A DNA stretch of 64,000 bases from an uncultured Pelagibacteraceae bacterium (GCA_902544065.1 CACCAS010000001.1:66458-130457); one strand, 5' to 3'; shown: positions 1,413-49,611, counted from the stretch's first letter. Made by a program: numbers and translations. Notes: generated by a model from the letters alone, not told the origin.

Positions 1413-1835
1413 ATGAATTTGAATGCAATTGATACTGATGAATTAAAAATTATTGGGACAATATTGCAGGACGGACTCATTGAAGTAAGTGATATTAAAT
1501 ACCTACCTTCAATAAGATCATTTTTTCTAATGATTACACGATTTATGTGGGAAGAAAAAATAGTAAATAAAGTCAATCAGCGTATTAAGGCCGTCCTATG
1601 CTTTGAGGACGTCATATCAGTTTATTCAAAAAATATTGATCAATTGAATAAATCAAAGAAATTAGAACTTTTGACTTTTAACTATTATCCCAATAAGTCA
1701 AAAAATATTGAAATTGAATTGCTTTTCAAAAATGATGCAATTATAAAACTCGAAACTGAAATTATTCGGTGCAAATTAGATGATCAAGGAAATCCTTGGG
1801 ATACAGAAAAAAAAGTTAATGAACAAAATAATTAA
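1413..1835 (+). CDS. conserved hypothetical protein, DUF2948-like
   Basis: 140 aa. The 'LQDGLIEVSDIKYLPSIRSFFLMITRFMWEE' pattern and the position between murA and hisD match my recollection of alphaproteobacterial DUF2948. Not verified. Confidence 0.6.
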   Translation: MNLNAIDTDELKIIGTILQDGLIEVSDIKYLPSIRSFFLMITRFMWEEKIVNKVNQRIKAVLCFEDVISVYSKNIDQLNKSKKLELLTFNYYPNKSKNIEIELLFKNDAIIKLETEIIRCKLDDQGNPWDTEKKVNEQNN

Positions 1836-3114
1836 TACAAGCAATTCAGACTTTTCACAGGAATTTGAAAATTTAGTAAATACTAATAGGTCAGATGACG
1901 AAGATGTAAAAGATGTTGTAGCTAATATAATTAATGATGTAAAAACCAAAGGTGATGGCGCTTTAATAAAGTATACCAATGAACTTGATCGCAATGAACT
2001 TTCAAAATCAAACTTCATTTTAGATGAAACTGCAATCAACAATCAGACAGATGAATTACCTGAACAGATATGCAAGGCTATTCAAATAGCAGCAGATCGA
2101 GTCAGAGTTTACCATGAAAAACAATTACCACAGGATCTAAGTTTTAATGATGGTCTAAAATCTACACTTGGATACATGTGGAGGCCTTTGGAAACGGCAG
2201 GAATTTATGTGCCAGGTGGAACAGCTAGCTACCCTAGTACAGTTCTTATGAATGCAATACCGGCCATGGTTGCAGGAGTAAAAGAAACAGTAATGGCCAC
2301 ACCATTAACTGACGGACAGATAAATCCATCAGTTTTATATGCTGCAAAAATTGTGGGTATTAAAAAAATATATTGCATGGGTGGCTCTCAGGCAGTCGCT
2401 GCTATGGCATATGGAACTGAAAGCGTGGTTCCAGTAAATAAAATCGTTGGACCTGGCAATGTTTACGTTGCTGAAGCAAAACGGCAAGTCTCAGGACTTG
2501 TCGGGATTGATATGTTTGCGGGCCCTTCTGAAGTAGTTGTAATTTCTGACCAGAATAGTGATCCAAAAATTATCTCTGCTGATCTCATAGCCCAATCTGA
2601 GCATGATAAAAGCGCTCAAAGCATTTTGATTACCACTGATCAAGCATTAGCTGAAGCAGTTGAAAAAGAAGTACTTAGTCAGTTAAAGTCACTTCCGCGA
2701 AAAGAAATTGCGTCAGTGAGCTGGGATAAAAACGGCAAAATCATTGTTGTACGTGATCTCAAAGAGGCTTTTGATATCTCAAATCAATTAGCCCCTGAAC
2801 ACCTCGAGCTTGCCATTGATAATGCGAGAGATTTTCTTAAATATATTGTCAATGCAGGTGCAGTATTTATCGGTAGGAATACACCCGAAGCATTAGGTGA
2901 CTATGTTGCTGGTCCAAGCCATGTATTGCCTACATCAAGAAGTGCAAAATTTTCATCAGGACTATCAGTATTTGACTTCCTAAAGAAAATATCGCTTGTT
3001 GAGTTTACAAAAGAAGGTATTGAAGAAATTGGAAATAGTGCTATGACAATCGCTGATAATGAAGGTCTTGACGGACATTCAAGGTCAATAGAATATAGGC
3101 TTACAAAAAAATAA
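1819..3114 (+). CDS. hisD: histidinol dehydrogenase
   Basis: Motifs 'GPGNVYVAEAKR', 'AGPSEVVVI', 'QSEHD', 'APEHLEL'. The ORF opens at 1780, but the ATG at 1819 (MNKIINTSNSDF...) gives a typical HisD N-terminus and a shorter overlap with the upstream gene. Confidence 0.92.
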   Translation: MNKIINTSNSDFSQEFENLVNTNRSDDEDVKDVVANIINDVKTKGDGALIKYTNELDRNELSKSNFILDETAINNQTDELPEQICKAIQIAADRVRVYHEKQLPQDLSFNDGLKSTLGYMWRPLETAGIYVPGGTASYPSTVLMNAIPAMVAGVKETVMATPLTDGQINPSVLYAAKIVGIKKIYCMGGSQAVAAMAYGTESVVPVNKIVGPGNVYVAEAKRQVSGLVGIDMFAGPSEVVVISDQNSDPKIISADLIAQSEHDKSAQSILITTDQALAEAVEKEVLSQLKSLPRKEIASVSWDKNGKIIVVRDLKEAFDISNQLAPEHLELAIDNARDFLKYIVNAGAVFIGRNTPEALGDYVAGPSHVLPTSRSAKFSSGLSVFDFLKKISLVEFTKEGIEEIGNSAMTIADNEGLDGHSRSIEYRLTKK

Positions 3115-3117
3115 TAT

Positions 3118-3336
3118 ATGTCAAAAGAAGAGATTTTAGAATTTAAGGGTAAAGTTACTGATATACTTCCGAATGCAATGTTTAAAGTTGCACTAGAAAA
3201 TGGCCATGAAGTTCTGGCACATACAGCTGGTAGAATGAGAAAAAATAGAATTAGAGTCTTAGCGGGTGACGAAGTTCTTGTTCAGATCACACCTTATGAC
3301 CTTACTAAAGGTAGAATCATATTTAGATATAAATAA
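3118..3336 (+). CDS. infA: translation initiation factor IF-1
   Basis: 72 aa, canonical IF-1 sequence (...[35 protein letters not shown]). Confidence 0.97.
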
Positions 3337-3349
3337 CTAAGAGAATATA

Positions 3350-3922
3350 TTGAAATTTATTTTAGGCAGCTCATCTCCTAGAAGATTGGAATTGCTATCA
3401 ATTCTTGGGATCAAACCCGATGAAATAATCGCACCAAATATTGACGAGACGATCAACGAAAAGGAATTGCCCTTAGATTACTGTAAACGAATAGCCACTC
3501 AAAAGATGAAGTACTTTGATGGGAAGCATGAAAATATTGTTATTCTTACGGCAGATACTATTGCCTATAGTGGAAGAAGAATAATTGATAAAACAAATGA
3601 TGAAGTTATTGCTAGGAAAAATCTCAATAAATTATCGGGTCGAAGACATCGCGTTTCAACCGTATTGTGCCTAAGAGATACTAAGAATAAAGTCATAAGT
3701 AGGAGTGTCACAACTACAGTCAATTTTAAACTGCTTAATAAAAAAGATATTGATAATTACATCAAAACAAATGAATGGAAAAATGTTTCAGGATCATACA
3801 AAATTCAGGGATTTGCTGAAGTTTTTATCAAGTCAATAAACGGCTCGTATTCAAATGTAGTTGGGTTACCATTGTTTCAAACTAATAACTTACTGGGTTC
3901 GATTGGTTTAATTAAATCATGA
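3350..3922 (+). CDS. maf: Maf-like nucleoside triphosphate pyrophosphatase / septum formation protein
   Basis: 190 aa, TTG start. 'ILGSSSPRRLELL' N-terminus, 'GSYKIQG' and 'NVVGLPL' motifs of the Maf family. Confidence 0.88.
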   Translation: MKFILGSSSPRRLELLSILGIKPDEIIAPNIDETINEKELPLDYCKRIATQKMKYFDGKHENIVILTADTIAYSGRRIIDKTNDEVIARKNLNKLSGRRHRVSTVLCLRDTKNKVISRSVTTTVNFKLLNKKDIDNYIKTNEWKNVSGSYKIQGFAEVFIKSINGSYSNVVGLPLFQTNNLLGSIGLIKS

Positions 3923-4344: not shown

Positions 4345-4420
4345 GGCTCGATAGCTCAGTTGGTAGAGCAAAGGACTGAAAATCCTTGTGTCGGTGGTTC
4401 AAATCCACCTCGAGCCACCA
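4345..4420 (+). tRNA. tRNA-Phe (anticodon GAA), CCA encoded
   Basis: 76-nt cloverleaf read by hand: acceptor GGCTCGA/TCGAGCC, D arm GCTC-AGTTGGTA-GAGC, anticodon arm AAGGA-CTGAAAA-TCCTT, T arm GGTGG-TTCAAAT-CCACC, discriminator A, then CCA. Confidence 0.93.
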
Positions 4421-4425
4421 CTTAT

Positions 4426-4502
4426 GCAGCTGTAGCTCAGTTGGTTAGAGCGCCTGGTTGTGGACCAGGAGGTCGGTAGTTCAAGTCTACCCAGCTGTAC
4501 CA
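4426..4502 (+). tRNA. tRNA-His (anticodon GUG), no encoded G-1, discriminator A73, CCA encoded
   Basis: 77-nt cloverleaf: acceptor GCAGCTG/CAGCTGT (G1:U72), D arm GCTC-AGTTGGTTA-GAGC, anticodon arm CCTGG-TTGTGGA-CCAGG, T arm GGTAG-TTCAAGT-CTACC, A73, CCA. The base at -1 (4425) is T. Confidence 0.9.
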
Positions 4503-5686
4503 ACTAATGTTTTTTTTACGGGAAGAGTTAGTACGATTATAAAGAGCAGGATCATTACAAATCCAAAAACTAAATAAAGAAATCCAAACTCACCGCTTAT
4601 TTCATAGCTTCTAGAAATTAGAATTAGGGCTATTGGCCCTACAGAGAATGAAACAATGAATTTTATACCATATACAAGACTTTGATATTTTTCTGGCGAG
4701 AATTTAGCCAGTAATAGATTTTCTGCTGGAAGTATACTTGAATTAAAAGCAACAATCATAAGACTGATAACAATTAACCAATAATTTGATAGACTAACAA
4801 TGAATAAAAGAAGTGTGCCTTGTCCGATGATGCCAATAGCATAAATTACTTTTTCAGAATATTTATCTGTTAAAATACCACCTATGTAGTTCATTAAGCC
4901 GCTTACAATATAAATGGCGGCTACAATATATCCAATCTCAGACGTTGAGAGGTTTAAGCTGTTTGACAGTCTGATATCAATTATTTTAGGCAAACTTGTT
5001 TGAAGAATTTGATATACAAAACTCAAGCATGTAATACTTACAAGCATAATAATTGCAATTTTTAGCATTTGATTTTTTTCTGGATTATCTCGAAATTGTT
5101 CTGATTTAATATTAGTCAATGAAATTTTTCCTGATTTCAAATGATATGAGAGACATAAGCCTGTTAGAATAGAAATTATTCCAGGCAATATAAACGCTGC
5201 TTGCCAATTAATCTGATCAATTAAAATACCAGCAAAAAAAGCTCCCAATCCAATTCCTACGCCTCCAAATATATTATTGAAACCAAGTGCACGTCCTGTT
5301 TCTTTTGATGTATTAACTATCCATGATATTCCTGCAGGGTGATATATTGAGCAAAATAAGCCAAGCAAGGATAGACTAATAAAAAGAGATAATTTATTCC
5401 CACTCAGCCCACAAAGAACCGAACTAATACCTAGACCTAAAAACATTATTGCAATCATTCCTGAACGGCTCCATCGATCACTAATCCATCCAGCTGGTAA
5501 AGATCCTATGCCAACAAGAAGAGACCCAAGAAACCATAGATTTAAAAGCTCGTCATATGAAAATTTCCACTCATCTTCAATCGCAAGTACAATTACAAAG
5601 TAAAATGCAGCAAACATGTGCATCAATAGATGGCCAAGCGCAGCATAAATAACAGTTAATTTTCTAACGTTTTCAGTGATAACCAT
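4487..5686 (-). CDS. MFS-type transporter
   Basis: 399 aa with about 12 hydrophobic segments. 'GWISDRWSRSGM' resembles the MFS loop 2-3 motif. Substrate unknown. Confidence 0.85.
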   Translation of the reverse strand: MVITENVRKLTVIYAALGHLLMHMFAAFYFVIVLAIEDEWKFSYDELLNLWFLGSLLVGIGSLPAGWISDRWSRSGMIAIMFLGLGISSVLCGLSGNKLSLFISLSLLGLFCSIYHPAGISWIVNTSKETGRALGFNNIFGGVGIGLGAFFAGILIDQINWQAAFILPGIISILTGLCLSYHLKSGKISLTNIKSEQFRDNPEKNQMLKIAIIMLVSITCLSFVYQILQTSLPKIIDIRLSNSLNLSTSEIGYIVAAIYIVSGLMNYIGGILTDKYSEKVIYAIGIIGQGTLLLFIVSLSNYWLIVISLMIVAFNSSILPAENLLLAKFSPEKYQSLVYGIKFIVSFSVGPIALILISRSYEISGEFGFLYLVFGFVMILLFIIVLTLPVKKTLVGTAG

Positions 5687-5774
5687 TTAATAAAAATAGA
5701 GTATTTCTACTTCACTTAATAATAAAAATTATAAAAATTTGACTTTTTTGAATAAATAAGGCATTTCACTGTTC

Positions 5775-5852
5775 ATGATTGTTTTTACACATCATCATAT
5801 TCATATTTAAGTTTGCTGAACAAAAAGCGTCAGCGAACAACGACCCCTTTTT
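5775..5852 (+). promoter_or_regulatory. candidate histidine leader peptide (MIVFTHHHIHI*, 5775-5810) plus alternative hairpins (candidate attenuator)
   Basis: ATG at 5775, four His codons (CAT) at 5790-5798 and 5802-5804, TAA at 5808-5810. A 9-bp hairpin (5811-5819 / 5830-5838) overlaps an A-tract/GC-stem/T-tract element (5822-5852). It lies 49 nt upstream of hisS. Confidence 0.45.
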
Positions 5853-5900
5853 ATATTAAATAAATTAACTTTGTAGTATCGTACTAACGATTGGAATCGT

Positions 5901-7292
5901 ATGACTAAAAATAACAATAACCCCAAGGCCATTTTACCTAGAGGGTTTAAAGATAGTGAGAAACAACTCCTGACTCTCAGAAAAATAGTTACTGAGGTAA
6001 TAGAGGAAGAGTGTCAAAAATTTGGATTTGTTGAATTAGAAACTTCATCCATTGAATATACTGATAGTCTAGGCAAGTTTTTGCCTGATATAGATCGACC
6101 AAGCGGAGGAGTTTTTTCGTTACAAGATGAAGATGGTCAATGGCTATCATTGCGATATGACCTTACAGCTCCTTTAGCACGATATGTTGCACAGAATTAT
6201 CAGAATTTAGTGAAGCCATTTAAAAGATATCAATCCGGAATAGTATGGAGAAATGAAAAGCCAGGACCTGGACGATTCAGAGAATTCTTACAATTTGATG
6301 CAGATGTTATCGGAATTCAGTCAAATCTAATCGATGCTGAATTATGTGTCATGGTTGTAAATATTTTAAGAAGACTTGGTTTAAATGATTCTCAATTTAA
6401 AATTAAATATTCAAATAGAAAAATTTGGACAAATCTTTTTGAGAAAATAAATGCTTCGAAAGAAGTTGAGTCAAAAATTCTTAGAGCAGTAGATAAAAAG
6501 GATCGTCTAGGTGATGAAGGTGTTAAAGACTTATTATGTGAGGGTAGAAAAGATAAATCTGGTGATTTTATGGAAGGTGTAGGTCTTAATAATGAACAAG
6601 CATCAATGATTTTAGACTTCATGAACGACCAGAAGCAAACGAGTGATGATATTGATGAGTTTAACTCTTATCTAGGGAATTTTGCCGATTATCCAATTTC
6701 ATTTGATCCATCTATTGTAAGAGGATTGGATTACTATACAGGCATGATTTTTGAAGCTGAACTATTAATTGATGTAAAAAATACAAAAGGTGAAACTATA
6801 GTTTTTGGATCAGTGGCTGGAGGAGGAAGATATGACAAACTGATATCAAGATTTGGAAAAGAAGACGTTCCCGCTACTGGCATTTCTGTTGGTGTTGACA
6901 GGCTTATTGTCGCTCTAGAGCAGTTGGATCTCATTAAAGTCAAATCGAGACCTTTAGTAATTGTAGCAAATTTAGGAGATAATAATTTATCCGAGTATAT
7001 TCGAATGGCATCTGAAATTAGAGATGCAGGCATGGCCTGCGAGATTTCTTTTGGCTCAAAAAATTTAGCTAAGCAACTTAAATATTGCGATCGCAAGCAA
7101 GCTGATGCAGTTGTAATTGCAGGTGATGATGAAATTAAAAATAATAAAATATCACTTAAAGATTTAAAAGAGGGAAGTGAGATTTCAAAAAATATAACTG
7201 GACGTGAAAAATGGAAAGAAACTAAAGCAGGTCAAAAAGAAGTAATTAGAGAGAATTTAGTAAGCACTCTAAAGGAAATACTAAAAATTTGA
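5901..7292 (+). CDS. hisS: histidyl-tRNA synthetase
   Basis: 463 aa. Class II motifs 'RYDLTAPLAR', 'FREFLQFDADVIG', 'GGGRYDKL', 'GISVGVDRL', plus a C-terminal anticodon-binding domain. Confidence 0.93.
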   Translation: MTKNNNNPKAILPRGFKDSEKQLLTLRKIVTEVIEEECQKFGFVELETSSIEYTDSLGKFLPDIDRPSGGVFSLQDEDGQWLSLRYDLTAPLARYVAQNYQNLVKPFKRYQSGIVWRNEKPGPGRFREFLQFDADVIGIQSNLIDAELCVMVVNILRRLGLNDSQFKIKYSNRKIWTNLFEKINASKEVESKILRAVDKKDRLGDEGVKDLLCEGRKDKSGDFMEGVGLNNEQASMILDFMNDQKQTSDDIDEFNSYLGNFADYPISFDPSIVRGLDYYTGMIFEAELLIDVKNTKGETIVFGSVAGGGRYDKLISRFGKEDVPATGISVGVDRLIVALEQLDLIKVKSRPLVIVANLGDNNLSEYIRMASEIRDAGMACEISFGSKNLAKQLKYCDRKQADAVVIAGDDEIKNNKISLKDLKEGSEISKNITGREKWKETKAGQKEVIRENLVSTLKEILKI

Positions 7293-7295
7293 GCT

Positions 7296-8423
7296 ATGTC
7301 ACTACAGGAATTAAATATTAGATTAAAAGATTATTTTATTGAGTTAGGATTTCAATATGTAGAGCTTCCTTTAGTACATGACTCTGACATTTTTTATGAA
7401 ACATCGGGAGAAGAAATCAGAAGTCAGATGTATTCTTTTATAGACGGTTCAGGGAAGGAAAAATGTCTGAGACCAGATATGACGATCCCTACGTGTCAAA
7501 GTTTTATTAAAAGTGATGATAAAATAAATGAAGCTAATTTATGCTATAGTGGACCCGTATTTAGGTCAACCAATGGAATAAACGATGCATCAATTGAATT
7601 AAACCAATCAGGGGTTGAAATTATTTTTACAGAAAAAAAGCTAAAAACCATTTATGAAAAAGATATATATACGCTTAAAACGGCAGTCAAAATTCTAGAA
7701 AAATTAAATATTAATGAATACCAAATTAAAATAGGCAGTCTAAACCTCTTTAATAGTTTTATAAGTTATTTAGATTTACCGATTAGGTGGAAACAAAGAA
7801 TTGTCAGGCATTTTTTTAGAAGAACATATTTTGATAGTTTGTTAAATCGATTAGGGCAAGGTGTCGGCTATGACATTTTGAAAAAAGATGAAATTATCAA
7901 TGAAAAACTAGGTTTGAATGCCAATTCAAGTGGAAATTTGGCTGATCTAATTAATTCTAATAGCAATTCTGATTCAGGCTCAAGAACAGTTGAAGAAATC
8001 GTCAAACGATTTCAGGAGAAAAGTGAAAACATCGTCTCTGAAAGCAACGGAAAACAAATTGTAAATCTGATAAAAAATTTTTTAGGTTTAAACGCTTCTC
8101 TTGATACTTTTCCGAACATTCTAAGAGAGTTTGTAAGTGATCAAAGGCTTGAGTTTTTTAAAAAAGAGATTGATGGCGTTGAAGAATTCAAGAACGCTGT
8201 CTCATCTGAAATGGATATATCTAAAATTAATTTTAACAATGACTTTGGACATTCAATTGAATTTTATGATGGTGTTATGTTCGAAATCTATGATCAATCA
8301 GGCAATTTAAAGTTAATAACTGGTGGAAGATACGATAAGTTACTTAATATTTTAGGGTCCAGAAACAATCTGTCAGCTATAGGGTTTGCAACAAATAATA
8401 ATAACTTAAGTAAAATTATATAA
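7296..8423 (+). CDS. hisZ: ATP phosphoribosyltransferase regulatory subunit (HisRS paralogue)
   Basis: 375 aa. HisRS-like catalytic core ('LRPDMTIP', 'GGRYDKLL') without an anticodon-binding domain. Sits immediately upstream of a short-form hisG. Confidence 0.85.
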   Translation: MSLQELNIRLKDYFIELGFQYVELPLVHDSDIFYETSGEEIRSQMYSFIDGSGKEKCLRPDMTIPTCQSFIKSDDKINEANLCYSGPVFRSTNGINDASIELNQSGVEIIFTEKKLKTIYEKDIYTLKTAVKILEKLNINEYQIKIGSLNLFNSFISYLDLPIRWKQRIVRHFFRRTYFDSLLNRLGQGVGYDILKKDEIINEKLGLNANSSGNLADLINSNSNSDSGSRTVEEIVKRFQEKSENIVSESNGKQIVNLIKNFLGLNASLDTFPNILREFVSDQRLEFFKKEIDGVEEFKNAVSSEMDISKINFNNDFGHSIEFYDGVMFEIYDQSGNLKLITGGRYDKLLNILGSRNNLSAIGFATNNNNLSKII

Positions 8424-8425
8424 TC

Positions 8426-9127
8426 ATGAAATTCAAAAATAAATTAAGGATAGGATTACCAAGTAAAGGCAGATTAAGAAAAGACATGGAGAAACTATTT
8501 CTACATAAAAATATTACTTTTGAAAATCTTGTAAATGATAGAGATTATATTGGTACAATAAAGGGACTAAGAGATACAGTTCTCTATTTTTTAAGTGCTA
8601 AAGAAATTACCAATAGACTTGATGAGGGATCAATCCATGCAGGCTTAACTGGTGATGACCTAATACAAGAAAAAATTTTCAATTTTAATTCAAAAATAAC
8701 AAAGGATCTGGAGTTAAGTTTTGGAAAAGCGGATCTGGTTGTTGCTGTACCGGATATCTGGATTGATGTAATGACGATGGCTGATTTGGAAGAAGTGAGC
8801 AATAATCACAGAGATAAATATTCAAAAAGGTTGCGTGTAGCAACTAAATATAAGAATTTAACAAATAATTTCTTTTCTAAATGTGGAGTTGTTGATTACA
8901 GAACTGTTGAAAGTGATGGCTCTACTGAAAGTGCGCCTTTCAATGGTTTTTCAGAAATCATCACTGATATAACATCAACAGGTGAAACACTTAGGGCTAA
9001 CAATTTAAGAGTTCTTGATGATGGCATAATCCTGAAATCATCAGCAAATATCTTTTCTTCAAAAGTTGCAGAGTGGGATAACGAAATAGAAAGTAATTAT
9101 AAAAACTTTATTAATAAGTTTGAATAA
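8426..9127 (+). CDS. hisG: ATP phosphoribosyltransferase, short (HisZ-dependent) form
   Basis: 233 aa. 'LRIGLPSKGRL' N-terminus and 'DITSTGETLRANNL'. Lacks the long-form C-terminal regulatory domain. Confidence 0.9.
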   Translation: MKFKNKLRIGLPSKGRLRKDMEKLFLHKNITFENLVNDRDYIGTIKGLRDTVLYFLSAKEITNRLDEGSIHAGLTGDDLIQEKIFNFNSKITKDLELSFGKADLVVAVPDIWIDVMTMADLEEVSNNHRDKYSKRLRVATKYKNLTNNFFSKCGVVDYRTVESDGSTESAPFNGFSEIITDITSTGETLRANNLRVLDDGIILKSSANIFSSKVAEWDNEIESNYKNFINKFE

Positions 9128-9155
9128 AAAAACCCGGCTAGGCCGGGTTTTTTTT
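9125..9155. terminator. bidirectional Rho-independent terminator between convergent hisG and groEL
   Basis: A-tract (9125-9132), stem CCCGGC (9133-9138), loop TAG, stem GCCGGG (9142-9147), T-tract (9148-9155). Confidence 0.8.
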
Positions 9156-9176: not shown

Positions 9177-10829
<1,653 letters not shown>

Positions 10830-11171: not shown

Positions 11172-11217
11172 TTTTAATCTCCTAAATATTTAATATCTTT
11201 CGCTTAATTACCTAGGC

Positions 11218-11246
11218 ATATAGTGATCCAGTGCGTATGTGTCAAG
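11218..11246 (-). promoter_or_regulatory. candidate sigma-32 (RpoH)-type heat-shock promoter of groES-groEL
   Basis: The minus strand reads CTTGAC-N15-CACTATAT, compared with the remembered consensus CTTGAA-N13-17-CCCCATAT. It lies about 47 nt upstream of the groES ATG. No CIRCE inverted repeat was seen. Confidence 0.35.
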
Positions 11247-11309
11247 AGGGGCTTCAAAAACGAATAATTATAAAAGATGACAAAAAATGCTTATTTTACA
11301 ACACTTTGA

Positions 11310-47050: not shown

Positions 47051-47090
47051 TTTAAGTGTTGCGTGTTTTTAAAGAATATAACATATTAAT

Positions 47091-47248
47091 CTTGTTGGTT
47101 CACGTAAAGTGAATAACAGGGAATGAGGTTAAAATCCTCAGCTGTACCCGCAACTGTAACTCAGGAGTTTGAATACAGATGCCACTGATTTAATCGGGAA
47201 GGCGTATTTGAATTTAGACGGAGAAGTCAGGAGACCTACCAACAAAGA
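47091..47248 (+). promoter_or_regulatory. cobalamin (B12) riboswitch
   Basis: Conserved blocks read directly: 'AACAGGGAA' (47115-47123), 'GGTTAAAATCC' (47127-47137), 'GCTGTACCCGCAACTGTAA' (47141-47159), 'GCCACTG' (47181-47187), 'CGGGAAGGC' (47195-47203), and the B12 box 'AGTCAGGAGACCTACC' (47225-47240). P1 closes with TTGTTGGT (47092-47099) / ACCAACAA (47238-47245). It is 126 nt upstream of the TonB-dependent receptor. Confidence 0.88.
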
Positions 47249-47373
47249 CGCAGTCATCCTCAGGTAATCGGGATAATTATTTGGACTTATAACTCAAGAG
47301 TAGTGGTGGCTTAATTATAACCGCTACGAATCAATATGATCGTTGCATATTTTGATTGAAAGGGTGACTTCAT

Positions 47374-49611
47374 ATGCCTAAATTTTCTATAATACTATTT
47401 TTTTACTTTTCAATTTTGATGCATTCATTTGCTGATGAACAAACAATCTGGATTACACCAAATGAAACTGACTATTCAAGATTATCAACTGGTTTAGCTG
47501 GTTCAAATATTACAATAATAAGTGAGAATGAAATCAAAAACTTCAAGAATTTAACTCTTCCAGAAATAGTTGCAACACACTCAGGTGTTCAACTAAGGAA
47601 TCTATTTTCAAACGTAAACTCTACACAAACAACGTTAGATCTAAGAGGATTTGGAGAGTCAGCAAAAAACAATAATTTAATTTTACTTAATGGCCGTCGA
47701 CTGAACGACATAGATATGGCAGGAGTAAATTTCTCAATGGTTCCAATAAAATCCATAAAAAGAATAGAATTAATTCGCGGTGGATCAGCTTCTACAATTT
47801 ATGGTGATGGAGCAACTGGTGGGGCAATCAACATTGTTACAAAAAACGTTTTAGACACATCAATGATTCTTGAGTTTGGAACAAGATCTCATAACACCTA
47901 TTCTACTAATCTCTCGCTTCCAATCAAAATTGACAATACTTCAGGCATACTATTCTCTGCATCTATTAATGAAAGTGACACATATAGGCAGCGTTCAGAT
48001 TTTGAAAGCGAAAGTTATTTAATGAGATATAATATTAAAAAAGAAAATTATGACTTTCATCTAGATATTAATAACAGTTTATATGAACAATTACTTCCTG
48101 GGTCTAGGTATAAAGCAAATTTGAATGGATATACACCATCAGATCCTGTTGCCTGTAATCTATTGTCTGATAGCAGAACAGCTTTTCAAAAAGGAACATG
48201 GTATACTCTGACAGGACAATGTTTAACTAGGGACCCTGATTATGCGAAGTTTGATATCACAGCAATTACTGCTGGTACAAATATCGAATTAGATGATTTA
48301 ACTAATATTTTCATTAGTATTTCAAATAGAGATAAAGAACAGAAAGCCTTTGTTGCAAGTGGAACATCAACTTTAGGGAATCCAACCTCAGAGGATACCT
48401 TTAACCTTTACGAGTTAGAAACAGATTATTTATCACTTAGAACTGATCATAAAACATTTTTAGCTGATCAATTGACAACTTTAAGTATTGGGGTTGATTT
48501 TCAAGAAACTGATTACTCAAAAAAATCAAGTCAAAGTTCTTCACTTCAATTTGGAGGATTTGTTAACGCATCACAAGAAAGTAGAGCAATATATTCACAG
48601 AATTCTATAAATTTCAATGAAGGAAACTCAATTATGTCATTTGGAGCTAGGCTCGAAAATGCTGATTATAAAGTGAGAGAGTCATTTGATAAATCCGTGA
48701 GTAAGTATGCATCTAGTTCAGCGCGTGATCCGTATCAAACAAAAATGTCAAATCACGCTGTCAATATAGGCATTGAACACATTTTAGATAATCAAAATAG
48801 ATTATTTGCAAAATATGCTGAAGCTTTCCGAACTCCAGATTTAGACTCGAGAAATGAAACGTGTGTTAAAAGTTACAGTTACCCCTGTAGTCATCCGGCT
48901 TTTTTTCTTAAAGATCAAAAATCTGACGAGACTGAGATTGGCATTCGTCACAAACAAAATAATTTTAGTTTAAATGCAAGTATATTTGAGATGAATACAG
49001 TAAATGAAATAAGGTATATACCTGAAAAAAATAATACTAATCTAGATCCCATTAAGCGTAAGGGTCTTAATCTAGATTTTAATTATAATTTAAACAAAGA
49101 TATAAATATCGTTGGATCGTTTACGTATATTGATGCACATTTCACCTCTGGCTCACTTACTAGAGGATATTTTGAGGGAACCTATGCGGCTAATTCTCAA
49201 ACTGCGATTAGCAAAATGGACAGTAGTAGAAACTTAAATGACGGAACTTATAATATTGCCGGACTAAAAGTACCCCTGGTATCTGAATATATTTATAACT
49301 TAGGTTTAAATTATAATATGCCACGAGAAATATTATTTAAAATAAATATGTCATTTGTTGACGATATGTTTGTTTCAAATGATCAAGAAAATATAGAGCC
49401 TACCATACCAAGTTACTATTTATTTGATTTAAGCCTTAGTTCTGAAAATGAATATGGAACGTGGTCTTTTGGTATAGACAATATATTTAATACTAGTTAT
49501 TACAATTTTGCAGTTGCAAGTACTGACCATGTAGATCAGAGCTATGGGAGACAAAACATGTACCCAATGGAAAGAAGAAGTATCTTTTTAGATTATTCCT
49601 ATGAATTCTAG
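47374..49611 (+). CDS. TonB-dependent outer-membrane receptor (BtuB-like by context)
   Basis: 745 aa. Signal peptide, TonB-box-like 'EQTIWITP', plug domain ('RGFGESAKNNNLILLNGRRLND', 'IELIRGGSASTIYGDGATGGAINIVTK'), and a C-terminal '...YSYEF' terminal Phe. Lies downstream of the B12 riboswitch. Confidence 0.9.
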   Translation: MPKFSIILFFYFSILMHSFADEQTIWITPNETDYSRLSTGLAGSNITIISENEIKNFKNLTLPEIVATHSGVQLRNLFSNVNSTQTTLDLRGFGESAKNNNLILLNGRRLNDIDMAGVNFSMVPIKSIKRIELIRGGSASTIYGDGATGGAINIVTKNVLDTSMILEFGTRSHNTYSTNLSLPIKIDNTSGILFSASINESDTYRQRSDFESESYLMRYNIKKENYDFHLDINNSLYEQLLPGSRYKANLNGYTPSDPVACNLLSDSRTAFQKGTWYTLTGQCLTRDPDYAKFDITAITAGTNIELDDLTNIFISISNRDKEQKAFVASGTSTLGNPTSEDTFNLYELETDYLSLRTDHKTFLADQLTTLSIGVDFQETDYSKKSSQSSSLQFGGFVNASQESRAIYSQNSINFNEGNSIMSFGARLENADYKVRESFDKSVSKYASSSARDPYQTKMSNHAVNIGIEHILDNQNRLFAKYAEAFRTPDLDSRNETCVKSYSYPCSHPAFFLKDQKSDETEIGIRHKQNNFSLNASIFEMNTVNEIRYIPEKNNTNLDPIKRKGLNLDFNYNLNKDINIVGSFTYIDAHFTSGSLTRGYFEGTYAANSQTAISKMDSSRNLNDGTYNIAGLKVPLVSEYIYNLGLNYNMPREILFKINMSFVDDMFVSNDQENIEPTIPSYYLFDLSLSSENEYGTWSFGIDNIFNTSYYNFAVASTDHVDQSYGRQNMYPMERRSIFLDYSYEF

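Follow-up and report, generated by a model that had tools for sequence, protein, structure and literature searches.

The hisL leader of the Escherichia coli and Salmonella his operon (RF00514) has 16 codons, seven of them consecutive His codons, together with alternative hairpins and a strong intrinsic terminator. Here we describe a candidate of related design in a 64-kb stretch of a SAR11 (Pelagibacteraceae) genome, hereafter the window, on which coordinates are based unless another locus is named. In it, an 11-codon open reading frame (ORF) with four His codons lies upstream of hisS, hisZ and hisG and is directly followed by a hairpin, P1. We predict from sequence comparison, with a probability of roughly 0.6, that this leader acts as a leader-peptide element through which ribosomes sense histidine for the SAR11 hisS-hisZ-hisG operon. 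SAR11 is the most abundant marine bacterial group and is noted for its paucity of transcription factors, riboswitches accounting for most of the regulation described in it. Both hisL and the SAR11 leader are His-rich short ORFs upstream of histidine-biosynthesis genes, hisG among them, and in both, as proposed for SAR11, hairpins just after the His codons read out the position of the ribosome. In contrast to hisL, the architecture represented in the window (type A) has 11 codons with three or four His, one stand-alone hairpin, no conserved terminator or competitor, and hisS as the first gene.

Other described systems share the logic or the layout. T-box riboswitches bind uncharged tRNA directly, and translation is not needed. 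The trpL leader of Sinorhizobium meliloti carries Trp codons and a classical terminator, and its released attenuator RNA acts in trans. T-boxes are found upstream of hisS in Firmicutes (PMC2965389) and follow the logic proposed for the SAR11 leader, namely expression of histidyl-tRNA synthetase (HisRS) tied to tRNA-His charging, while trpL is a leader-peptide attenuator in an alphaproteobacterium (PMC6614838), as is proposed for SAR11. The nearest analogues in layout are two further groups. Naville and Gautheret 2010 (PMC2965389) predicted His leader peptides before hisZ and a hisS paralogue in Bacillus; like the SAR11 leader they precede members of the hisS/hisZ family, but they belong to Firmicutes and were found via premature terminators, which type A lacks, and no sequence relation to SAR11 was found. 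Canestrari et al. (bioRxiv 10.1101/834739) described mycobacterial polycysteine leaderless small ORFs (sORFs), on which a stalled ribosome blocks a duplex hiding the downstream ribosome-binding site. These share with the SAR11 leader an enrichment in codons for the amino acid of the downstream pathway, the lack of a classical terminator and, as proposed for SAR11, stalling as the sensor. By its promoter spacing the SAR11 ORF may be leaderless too; unlike the mycobacterial sORFs, it forms no duplex with the hisS start above chance in 11 lineages.

The first-pass annotation, made on the DNA alone, knew of no description of such a leader for hisS-hisZ-hisG in streamlined alphaproteobacteria, and none was found in a literature search of incomplete coverage that included two SAR11 motif surveys and the attenuator survey PMC2965389. 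A survey of SAR11 intergenic motifs (PMC2704228) does not mention hisS or histidine, and none of the 11 upstream ORFs given for strain HIMB5 in Table S1 of PMC6429828 stands before hisS. The His-codon leader is genuine and apparently undescribed, and its features suggest that it works like the class of hisL, trpL and pheL while lacking alternative helices and an intrinsic terminator.

Conservation of the His-codon ORF

The mini-ORF reported by the first-pass annotation (ATG 5775 to TAA 5810, MIVFTHHHIHI plus stop) proved correct in letters and coordinates on re-reading of the sequence, with His codons at 5790-5798 and 5802-5804. It is the sole ATG-started small ORF (4-41 codons) with at least four His in six codons on either strand of the window, where a second-order Markov model predicts 0.15 such ORFs, and CATCATCAT has a single occurrence in the window. 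The leader ORF exceeds chance expectation. Its Shine-Dalgarno (SD) motif had been called poor, which is true and uninformative, since just 11 of the 58 window ORFs with 100 aa or more carry an SD-like motif 4-18 nt from the start. Translation in this genome mostly begins without an SD, and for the same reason the weak SD is no argument against translation of the leader.

Related loci were retrieved via the HisS protein and blind to the leader, using one genome per species plus eight protein clusters at 59-71% identity. Many Pelagibacteraceae single-cell genomes encode a HisS that is 97-98% identical to that of the window, which places the window in SAR11. This sampling yielded 25 distinct leaders with HisS identities of 59-98%, and the 11-codon ORF stood in the same place in 25 of 25, a count that covers loci with the MFS / hisS-hisZ-hisG arrangement. 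Among the peptides were MLIIKHHHSHI, MITLLHHHYHI, MFNFKHHHYHI and MFIIKHHCLHI, along with MFIFKHHHLHI, MIKLLHHHYRI, MFIIKHHQLHI and MFNFKHHTAHI. Metagenomes were scanned with a pattern that fixed His6, His7 and codons 10-11 and left the start codon free. The pattern matched 94 times; an ATG lay exactly five codons upstream in all 28 matches within 2 kb upstream of a HisS gene and in only one of the other 66, which were not upstream of hisS.

The pooled type-A set comprised 43 distinct leader sequences with 25 distinct peptides. Met1 (ATG), His6 (CAT throughout), His7 (CAT in 29, CAC in 14) and the stop codon (TAA in 35, TGA in 8) were present in all 43, His10 in 42 (CAT, with CGT in the remaining one) and Ile11 in 41 (ATT in 21, ATC in 20). 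Codon 8 was His in 33 leaders and otherwise T, N, C, Q or P, while codons 2-5 and 9 varied freely, as in the N-terminal variants MIVFT, MLIIK, MITLL, MFNFK and MFIIK. The alignment columns of the ORF were gap-free in the 43 leaders, with ATG and stop columns fixed, and the P1 loop and the downstream spacer were rich in indels. As judged from the alignment, this column pattern is the signature of a translated ORF in which the His codons and the placement of the stop would carry the meaning. The first-pass annotation had made its proposal depend on an alignment of related hisS upstream regions, and there the frame, the length and the His codons were indeed kept across deep SAR11 lineages. The leader thus has two features of amino acid attenuators, a short same-strand ORF before hisS-hisZ-hisG and an in-frame enrichment in His codons that is kept in relatives. 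Its predicted translation and His dependence rest on comparison.

Conservation of this kind could also come from the product itself, an 11-residue functional peptide with a hydrophobic N-terminus and a His cluster (e.g., metal-binding or membrane-active) whose position before hisS is incidental. Although the C-terminal HxHI is strongly kept, with Ile11 in 41 of 43, and the length is fixed at 11 codons, the N-terminal half is variable and His8 gives way to C, Q, T, N or P. Furthermore, genuine copies all stand before hisS, bar one possible chance match, another clade has a His-rich sORF of unrelated sequence at the corresponding site (see below), and the adjoining hairpin is positioned to the nucleotide relative to the stop. 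We regard a functional peptide as extremely improbable.

Hairpin P1 and the proposed terminator

P1 begins at the first base past the stop codon in all leaders. In the window it consists of 9 bp including one G-U pair, just as the first-pass annotation had it in letters, coordinates and pairing, and it is present in both the minimum free energy (MFE) and the centroid fold of the leader. RNAalifold, run on the 43 leaders, predicted P1 as the sole helix. All 370 alignment cells of P1 were standard pairs (370/370, 42 distinct sequences), and four of the nine pairs had changed on both sides (C-G/U-A, A-U/G-C twice and U-A/C-G), a covariation that was reached by 0 of 500 shuffles. Sliding the 3' arm by 1-3 columns lowered the pairing to 28-56%. 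The folding energy was -8 to -13 kcal/mol in all clades. About a quarter of the P1 cells are G-U pairs, and because such pairs occur only in plus-strand RNA, P1 acts as plus-strand RNA; frequent G-U pairs likewise rule out a DNA palindrome or a minus-strand RNA. The first-pass annotation had further called for a fold of the leader and for covariation in both of its hairpins. On both counts P1 stood, being found in the MFE and centroid structures and showing compensatory changes, but the second hairpin, a terminator stem, equalled shuffled and slid controls, and the whole 146-nt leader was no more stable than its shuffles (z = -0.49).

The very high nucleotide conservation of CATATYTRAGTTTG, the fact that CAT6 is never CAC, and ACCCC (Table 1), which the ribosome model leaves unexplained, could together point to an RNA- or DNA-level element (CAUCAY, P1 and ACCCC; protein-bound or a small RNA) with the reading frame as a by-product. 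Such an element would not account for the invariant positions of ATG and stop, the lack of indels only within the ORF, the TAA/TGA swap and the third positions that vary at His7, His8 and Ile11. Moreover, His codons are retained in unrelated sequence in a second SAR11 architecture, helix P0, which would pair the leader AUG with the His codons, has no covariation, and no Rfam family matches. We therefore see this explanation as very unlikely. The rejected helix P0 was weak (-3 to -3.7 kcal/mol) and absent in L039, and its three invariant pairs are simply AUG:CAU. Rfam 15 gave no RF00514 match above the gathering score anywhere in the window and none with E ≤ 10 between 5600 and 6000, and the T-box leader RF00230 had no covariance-model match. 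Mimicry of tRNA-His by P1 or P2, a smaller hairpin nearer to hisS, was discarded by inspection only, as the loops lack GUG and no NCCA adjoins the stem.

In the first-pass annotation, P1 was an antiterminator excluding a terminator-like element made of GCGTC (5827-5831), GACCC (5842-5846) and a T-run. The window does contain these letters, the regulatory reasoning is sound, and in the clade of L015 and L046 the GGG of the P1 3' arm could pair with the CCC of ACCCC just before a U-run, so that a weak version is possible in single lineages. Nevertheless, the proposed stem carries a C-C mismatch, and only 45% of its alignment cells are paired, as in shuffled and slid controls, with one of its five pairs never formed. 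G5842 is A in nearly all of the 97-98% relatives, and other clades carry CTATATAAAT, TTATACCATT or TTTATATTT in place of the T-run, which is absent in the clades of L014, L036 and L042. A terminator scan of 5400-6100 made no call. The real terminator of this genome, which lies after hisG, has a 6-bp all-GC stem and T8; nothing comparable occurs in the leader. Since RNAalifold gives P1 only and the terminator stem is at control level, the claimed mutual exclusion of two helices did not hold, and a classical two-hairpin attenuator appears highly improbable. Two usual features of attenuators are lacking here: antiterminator and terminator helices that exclude each other, and an intrinsic terminator ahead of the first structural gene. 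A third, an RNA structure placed such that ribosome position can alter its folding, is found (P1 at the stop, His codons 9-21 nt upstream).

Three further conserved features lie between P1 and hisS. By inspection, no G-rich pairing partner was found for the invariant ACCCC, candidates in the promoter region or the hisS SD not being conserved, and ACCCCYT was not enriched in the window (5 matches against 6.2 expected). In type A, 20-30 nt separate TAGTAT from hisS; the motif occurs also in the second architecture, about 25 nt before tRNA-His (L017, 2857-2862), and is possibly an internal -10 box or an RNA motif. A -35/-10 pair of ACCCC and TAGTAT was ruled out by a spacing that varies from 21 to 29 nt. 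Hairpin P2 has an alternative pairing in the clade of the window (ACGAT-TGGA-ATCGT, 5887-5900), and a small P2-like hairpin (-4 to -9 kcal/mol) stands at the same site in nearly all clades, with arms that differ by clade (AGTATC/GATACT, GTATCA/TGATAC and TAGTACT/AGTACTA) and a 5' arm that overlaps the near-invariant TAGTAT. RNAalifold did not recover P2, owing to indels and register shifts. The spacer between P1 and P2 is AU-rich, unstructured and 35-45 nt long.

A predicted ribosome-based histidine sensor

The spacing of promoter-like boxes suggests where the transcript begins. Type-A leaders have the layout TTGACT-N16-GCATTT-N8-ATG. Leaders of the second architecture (type B) have CTTGCA-N16-CTAATT/CTATTT-N8-ATG or TTGAAT-N15-CTATTA-N8-ATG. 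Six representatives of both types aligned without gaps from the -35-like box to the ATG, and the distance from that box to the ATG is equal in the two architectures. Transcription normally starts 6-9 nt after the -10 box. Because the -10-like box ends 8 nt before the ATG in both architectures, the transcript probably starts at or within 2 nt of ATG 5775, with a 5' untranslated region of 0-2 nt and a leaderless or near-leaderless ORF. The groES promoter of the window (11215-11250, minus strand; CTTGAC-N17-CTATAT), which the type-B boxes resemble, served as a reference, and we take its sequence to fit the alphaproteobacterial consensus form. A metagenome contig (LULV01001055.1) stops one base upstream of the leader ATG, which may be an RNA-derived 5' end or chance. 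Two Logan contigs over the leader carry a divergent gene, hence are DNA-derived and uninformative on transcript ends.

Counted from the first base of the A-site codon, a bacterial ribosome shields about 12 nt of downstream mRNA. The His codons lie 21, 18, 15 and 9 nt upstream of the P1 base. From the known footprint and these distances, a ribosome would end 3-9 nt before P1 when its A site holds one of His6-His8, would extend into the first 3-4 P1 pairs when it holds His10, and would cover the whole P1 5' arm when it holds the stop codon. By this geometry the state of P1 would report the passage of ribosomes over the His codons. When His-tRNA-His is scarce, ribosomes would arrest at His6-His8 and P1 would stay folded; with adequate charging they would reach the stop and unwind the P1 5' arm. 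Given that negative feedback needs the starved state to raise HisRS and HisZG, folded P1 would be the ON state, in agreement with the first-pass annotation, with read-through into hisS-hisZ-hisG increased or their mRNA stabilised, and P1 opened by the ribosome would be OFF. The attenuation model of the first-pass annotation survives in its sensor half, as a ribosome at the stop codon would cover the P1 5' arm, but not in its terminator read-out as written.

The OFF step is not a canonical intrinsic terminator; it would most likely be factor-dependent termination or pausing at the invariant P1-N5-ACCCC module, or cleavage in the AU-rich spacer. The end of the C-run lies 9-10 nt from the P1 hairpin. 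A distance of 9-10 nt is the geometry of hairpin-stabilised pauses. Within the sensor model, any single output mechanism would merit no more than about a one-third share of belief. The possible internal promoter at TAGTAT would supply basal expression of the essential hisS. A more specific version, which we put forward tentatively and hold to be rather doubtful, is that SAR11 uses terminator-less attenuation, with a leaderless His ORF, a single hairpin and ACCCC, where a factor or a pause, of a kind not known for leader peptides, gates elongation or mRNA survival and where, in a deeper clade, tRNA-His is included in the regulated unit, so that a tRNA gene would be attenuated by its own charged product.

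That deeper clade has the type-B architecture, known from four sequences in three lineages, in which tRNA-His ends 5-6 nt before hisS-hisZ-hisG. In L017 and L026, whose HisS is about 47% identical to that of the window, the distance to the hisS ATG is 5 nt. Upstream of tRNA-His lie sORFs of 24 or 20 codons with the His motifs HRHYFH, HRHHFH or HHLTH (Table 1). In each, the last His codon directly adjoins a hairpin within the reading frame. In L017 and L026 this hairpin is GCUGGCU-GCA-AGCUAGC, with a U/A-rich tail behind it; in L017 the site was called terminator-like by the scan, against 0.1 calls expected. L139 and L140/L141, reached via HisS, repeat the design with other sequences. The hairpin of L140/L141, GCUAAGC-AAAA-GCUUGGC, differs from that of L017 by paired changes at several positions, as seen by inspection. 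At least two deep SAR11 lineages whose leader sequences are unrelated have a His-codon sORF with an adjoining hairpin before (tRNA-His-)hisS-hisZ-hisG, and this recurrence of one design argues for function and not inheritance alone. A leader peptide before a tRNA gene would be unusual.

Several observations weigh against the sensor. The -10-like GCATTT matches TATAAT poorly, and a consensus scan placed no promoter there. P1 would refold once the terminating ribosome leaves, so the OFF state needs tight timing, e.g., the proposed pause. Neither the terminator scan nor the stem pairing counts revealed a conserved terminator opposing P1, and when the leaders of 15 lineages were folded as if a ribosome had stalled or was terminating on them, each gave a different structure and no consistent alternative helix emerged. 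The best duplex between the P1 arms and downstream sequence was no better than that of shuffled arms and inconstant in position, and within the ORF, too, the arms had no partner better than shuffled arms had. Pairing of the ORF with the hisS start region (CAU:AUG hiding) did not exceed shuffles in 11 lineages. The C over G excess of the leader is mild and within one standard deviation of the window-wide distribution, so that a Rho-loading site is neither supported nor excluded. In type B the His codons straddle the hairpin base (-18 to -3), so the sign of the hairpin effect is not fixed by geometry alone. Finally, the order hisS-hisZ-hisG 3' of the leader is the same in all type-A lineages sampled, and since synteny is kept throughout, common ancestry could account in part for the leader being linked to the operon.

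In a variant of the sensor model with another output, a stalled ribosome and P1 would act on mRNA fate or on translation and not on transcription, either by shielding the transcript from 5'-end-dependent decay or by affecting hisS initiation via P2. In induced stability of the ermC type, a stalled ribosome protects the transcript. An ORF that is probably leaderless and at the extreme 5' end, the AU-rich unstructured spacer of 35-45 nt between P1 and P2, the conservation of P2 just 5' of hisS and the lack of a terminator would all suit this explanation, and the mycobacterial leaderless sORF attenuators do act on translation (bioRxiv 10.1101/834739). However, it leaves unexplained why P1 starts exactly at the stop codon and why ACCCC is invariant, the complementarity between ORF and hisS start is at shuffle level as noted, the hisS start codon lies outside P2, and most clades have no SD to hide. 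On balance we consider it unlikely.

If the sensor reading is true, the leader would be a clear case of ribosome-mediated amino acid sensing in SAR11, coupling tRNA-His charging to HisRS, to the opening step of histidine synthesis (hisG) and to the tRNA-His gene of one clade. At about 125 nt, it would also be a compact system for studying how a ribosome-controlled hairpin regulates without a textbook switch, and the conserved leader peptide pattern could serve as a marker for annotating the element in metagenomes.

Genomic setting

The window carries a histidine-related cluster of hisD, tRNA-His, hisS, hisZ and hisG, and the leader lies in the gap between the convergent MFS gene and hisS (Table 1). 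In most type-A lineages tRNA-His sits directly past the 3' end of the convergent MFS gene. Comparison with L017 suggests an insertion of the MFS gene between tRNA-His and hisS. No His-rich sORF was found upstream of tRNA-His in type-A loci.

Table 1. Coordinates of the leader, its neighbours in the window and the type-B sORFs (type-B positions refer to the respective locus).
Feature	Position	Strand	Details
hisD	1780-3114	+	
infA	3118-3336	+	
maf	3350-3922	+	
tRNA-Phe	4345-4420	+	just past the 3' end of the convergent MFS gene
tRNA-His	4426-4502	+	1.4 kb upstream of the leader, same strand; convergent MFS gene between them
MFS transporter gene	4487-5686	-	
Intergenic gap before hisS	5687-5900		214 nt; holds the leader
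-35-like hexamer TTGACT	5739-5744	+	TTGAC conserved in all 43 type-A leaders; putative promoter
-10-like box GCATTT	5761-5766	+	16 nt past the -35-like box, 8 nt before ATG; position and spacing conserved in type A
Leader ORF	5775-5810	+	11 codons plus TAA (5808-5810); 90 nt before hisS
Hairpin P1	5811-5838	+	arms GTTTGCTGA (5811-5819) and TCAGCGAAC (5830-5838); A-rich loop 5820-5829
ACCCC	5843-5847	+	invariant in all 43 leaders; 4-5 nt 3' of P1
T-run TTTTT	5848-5852	+	tail of the terminator proposed in the first-pass annotation; not conserved
TAGTAT	5874-5879	+	near-invariant (AGTA invariant; alignment columns A109 G110 T111 A112)
Hairpin P2	5878-5891	+	ATCGT-ACTA-ACGAT; just 5' of the hisS start
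hisS	5901-7292	+	Pfam tRNA-synt_His plus HGTP_anticodon
hisZ	7296-8423	+	Pfam tRNA-synt_His only
hisG	8426-9127	+	Pfam HisG
Intrinsic terminator 3' of hisG	9133-9155	+	canonical; CCCGGC-TAG-GCCGGG plus T8
groEL	9177-10826	-	
Type-B sORF, L017	2762-2836		24 codons; MNKFVTINRETHRHYFHAGCKLAI plus stop
Type-B sORF, L026	2771-2845		24 codons; MNKLAIINIETHRHHFHAGCKLAI plus stop
Type-B sORF, L139	482-556		MIKKIETFKNIHRHHFHAGCTLAI plus stop; HisS 78% identical to L017
Type-B sORF, L140 (L140/L141)	2361-2423		MKFVLKNIHHLTHAKQKLGN plus stop; HisS 54%; 1.06-Mb genome

The genes hisG and groEL are convergent, and the terminator between them, with an A-run, an all-GC 6-bp stem and T8, is probably bidirectional. 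Elsewhere in the window, a cobalamin riboswitch (47079-47257, 114 bits) stands upstream of a gene for a TonB-dependent receptor (47374-49611, Plug plus beta-barrel) in a btuB-like arrangement. TonB-dependent receptors are uncommon in SAR11.

Outside SAR11, no His-rich sORF was found upstream of hisS in the GC-rich alphaproteobacterial loci L018-L022 and L030. Three of these (L018, L019 and L021; Hyphomicrobiales/Pseudolabrys) have in common GGGGCGGCTGCTACCACGC(C)AGCCATTGCAAC, about 60-100 nt upstream of hisS, which resembles a Caulobacter-type promoter (GCTACCAC) or a hairpin.

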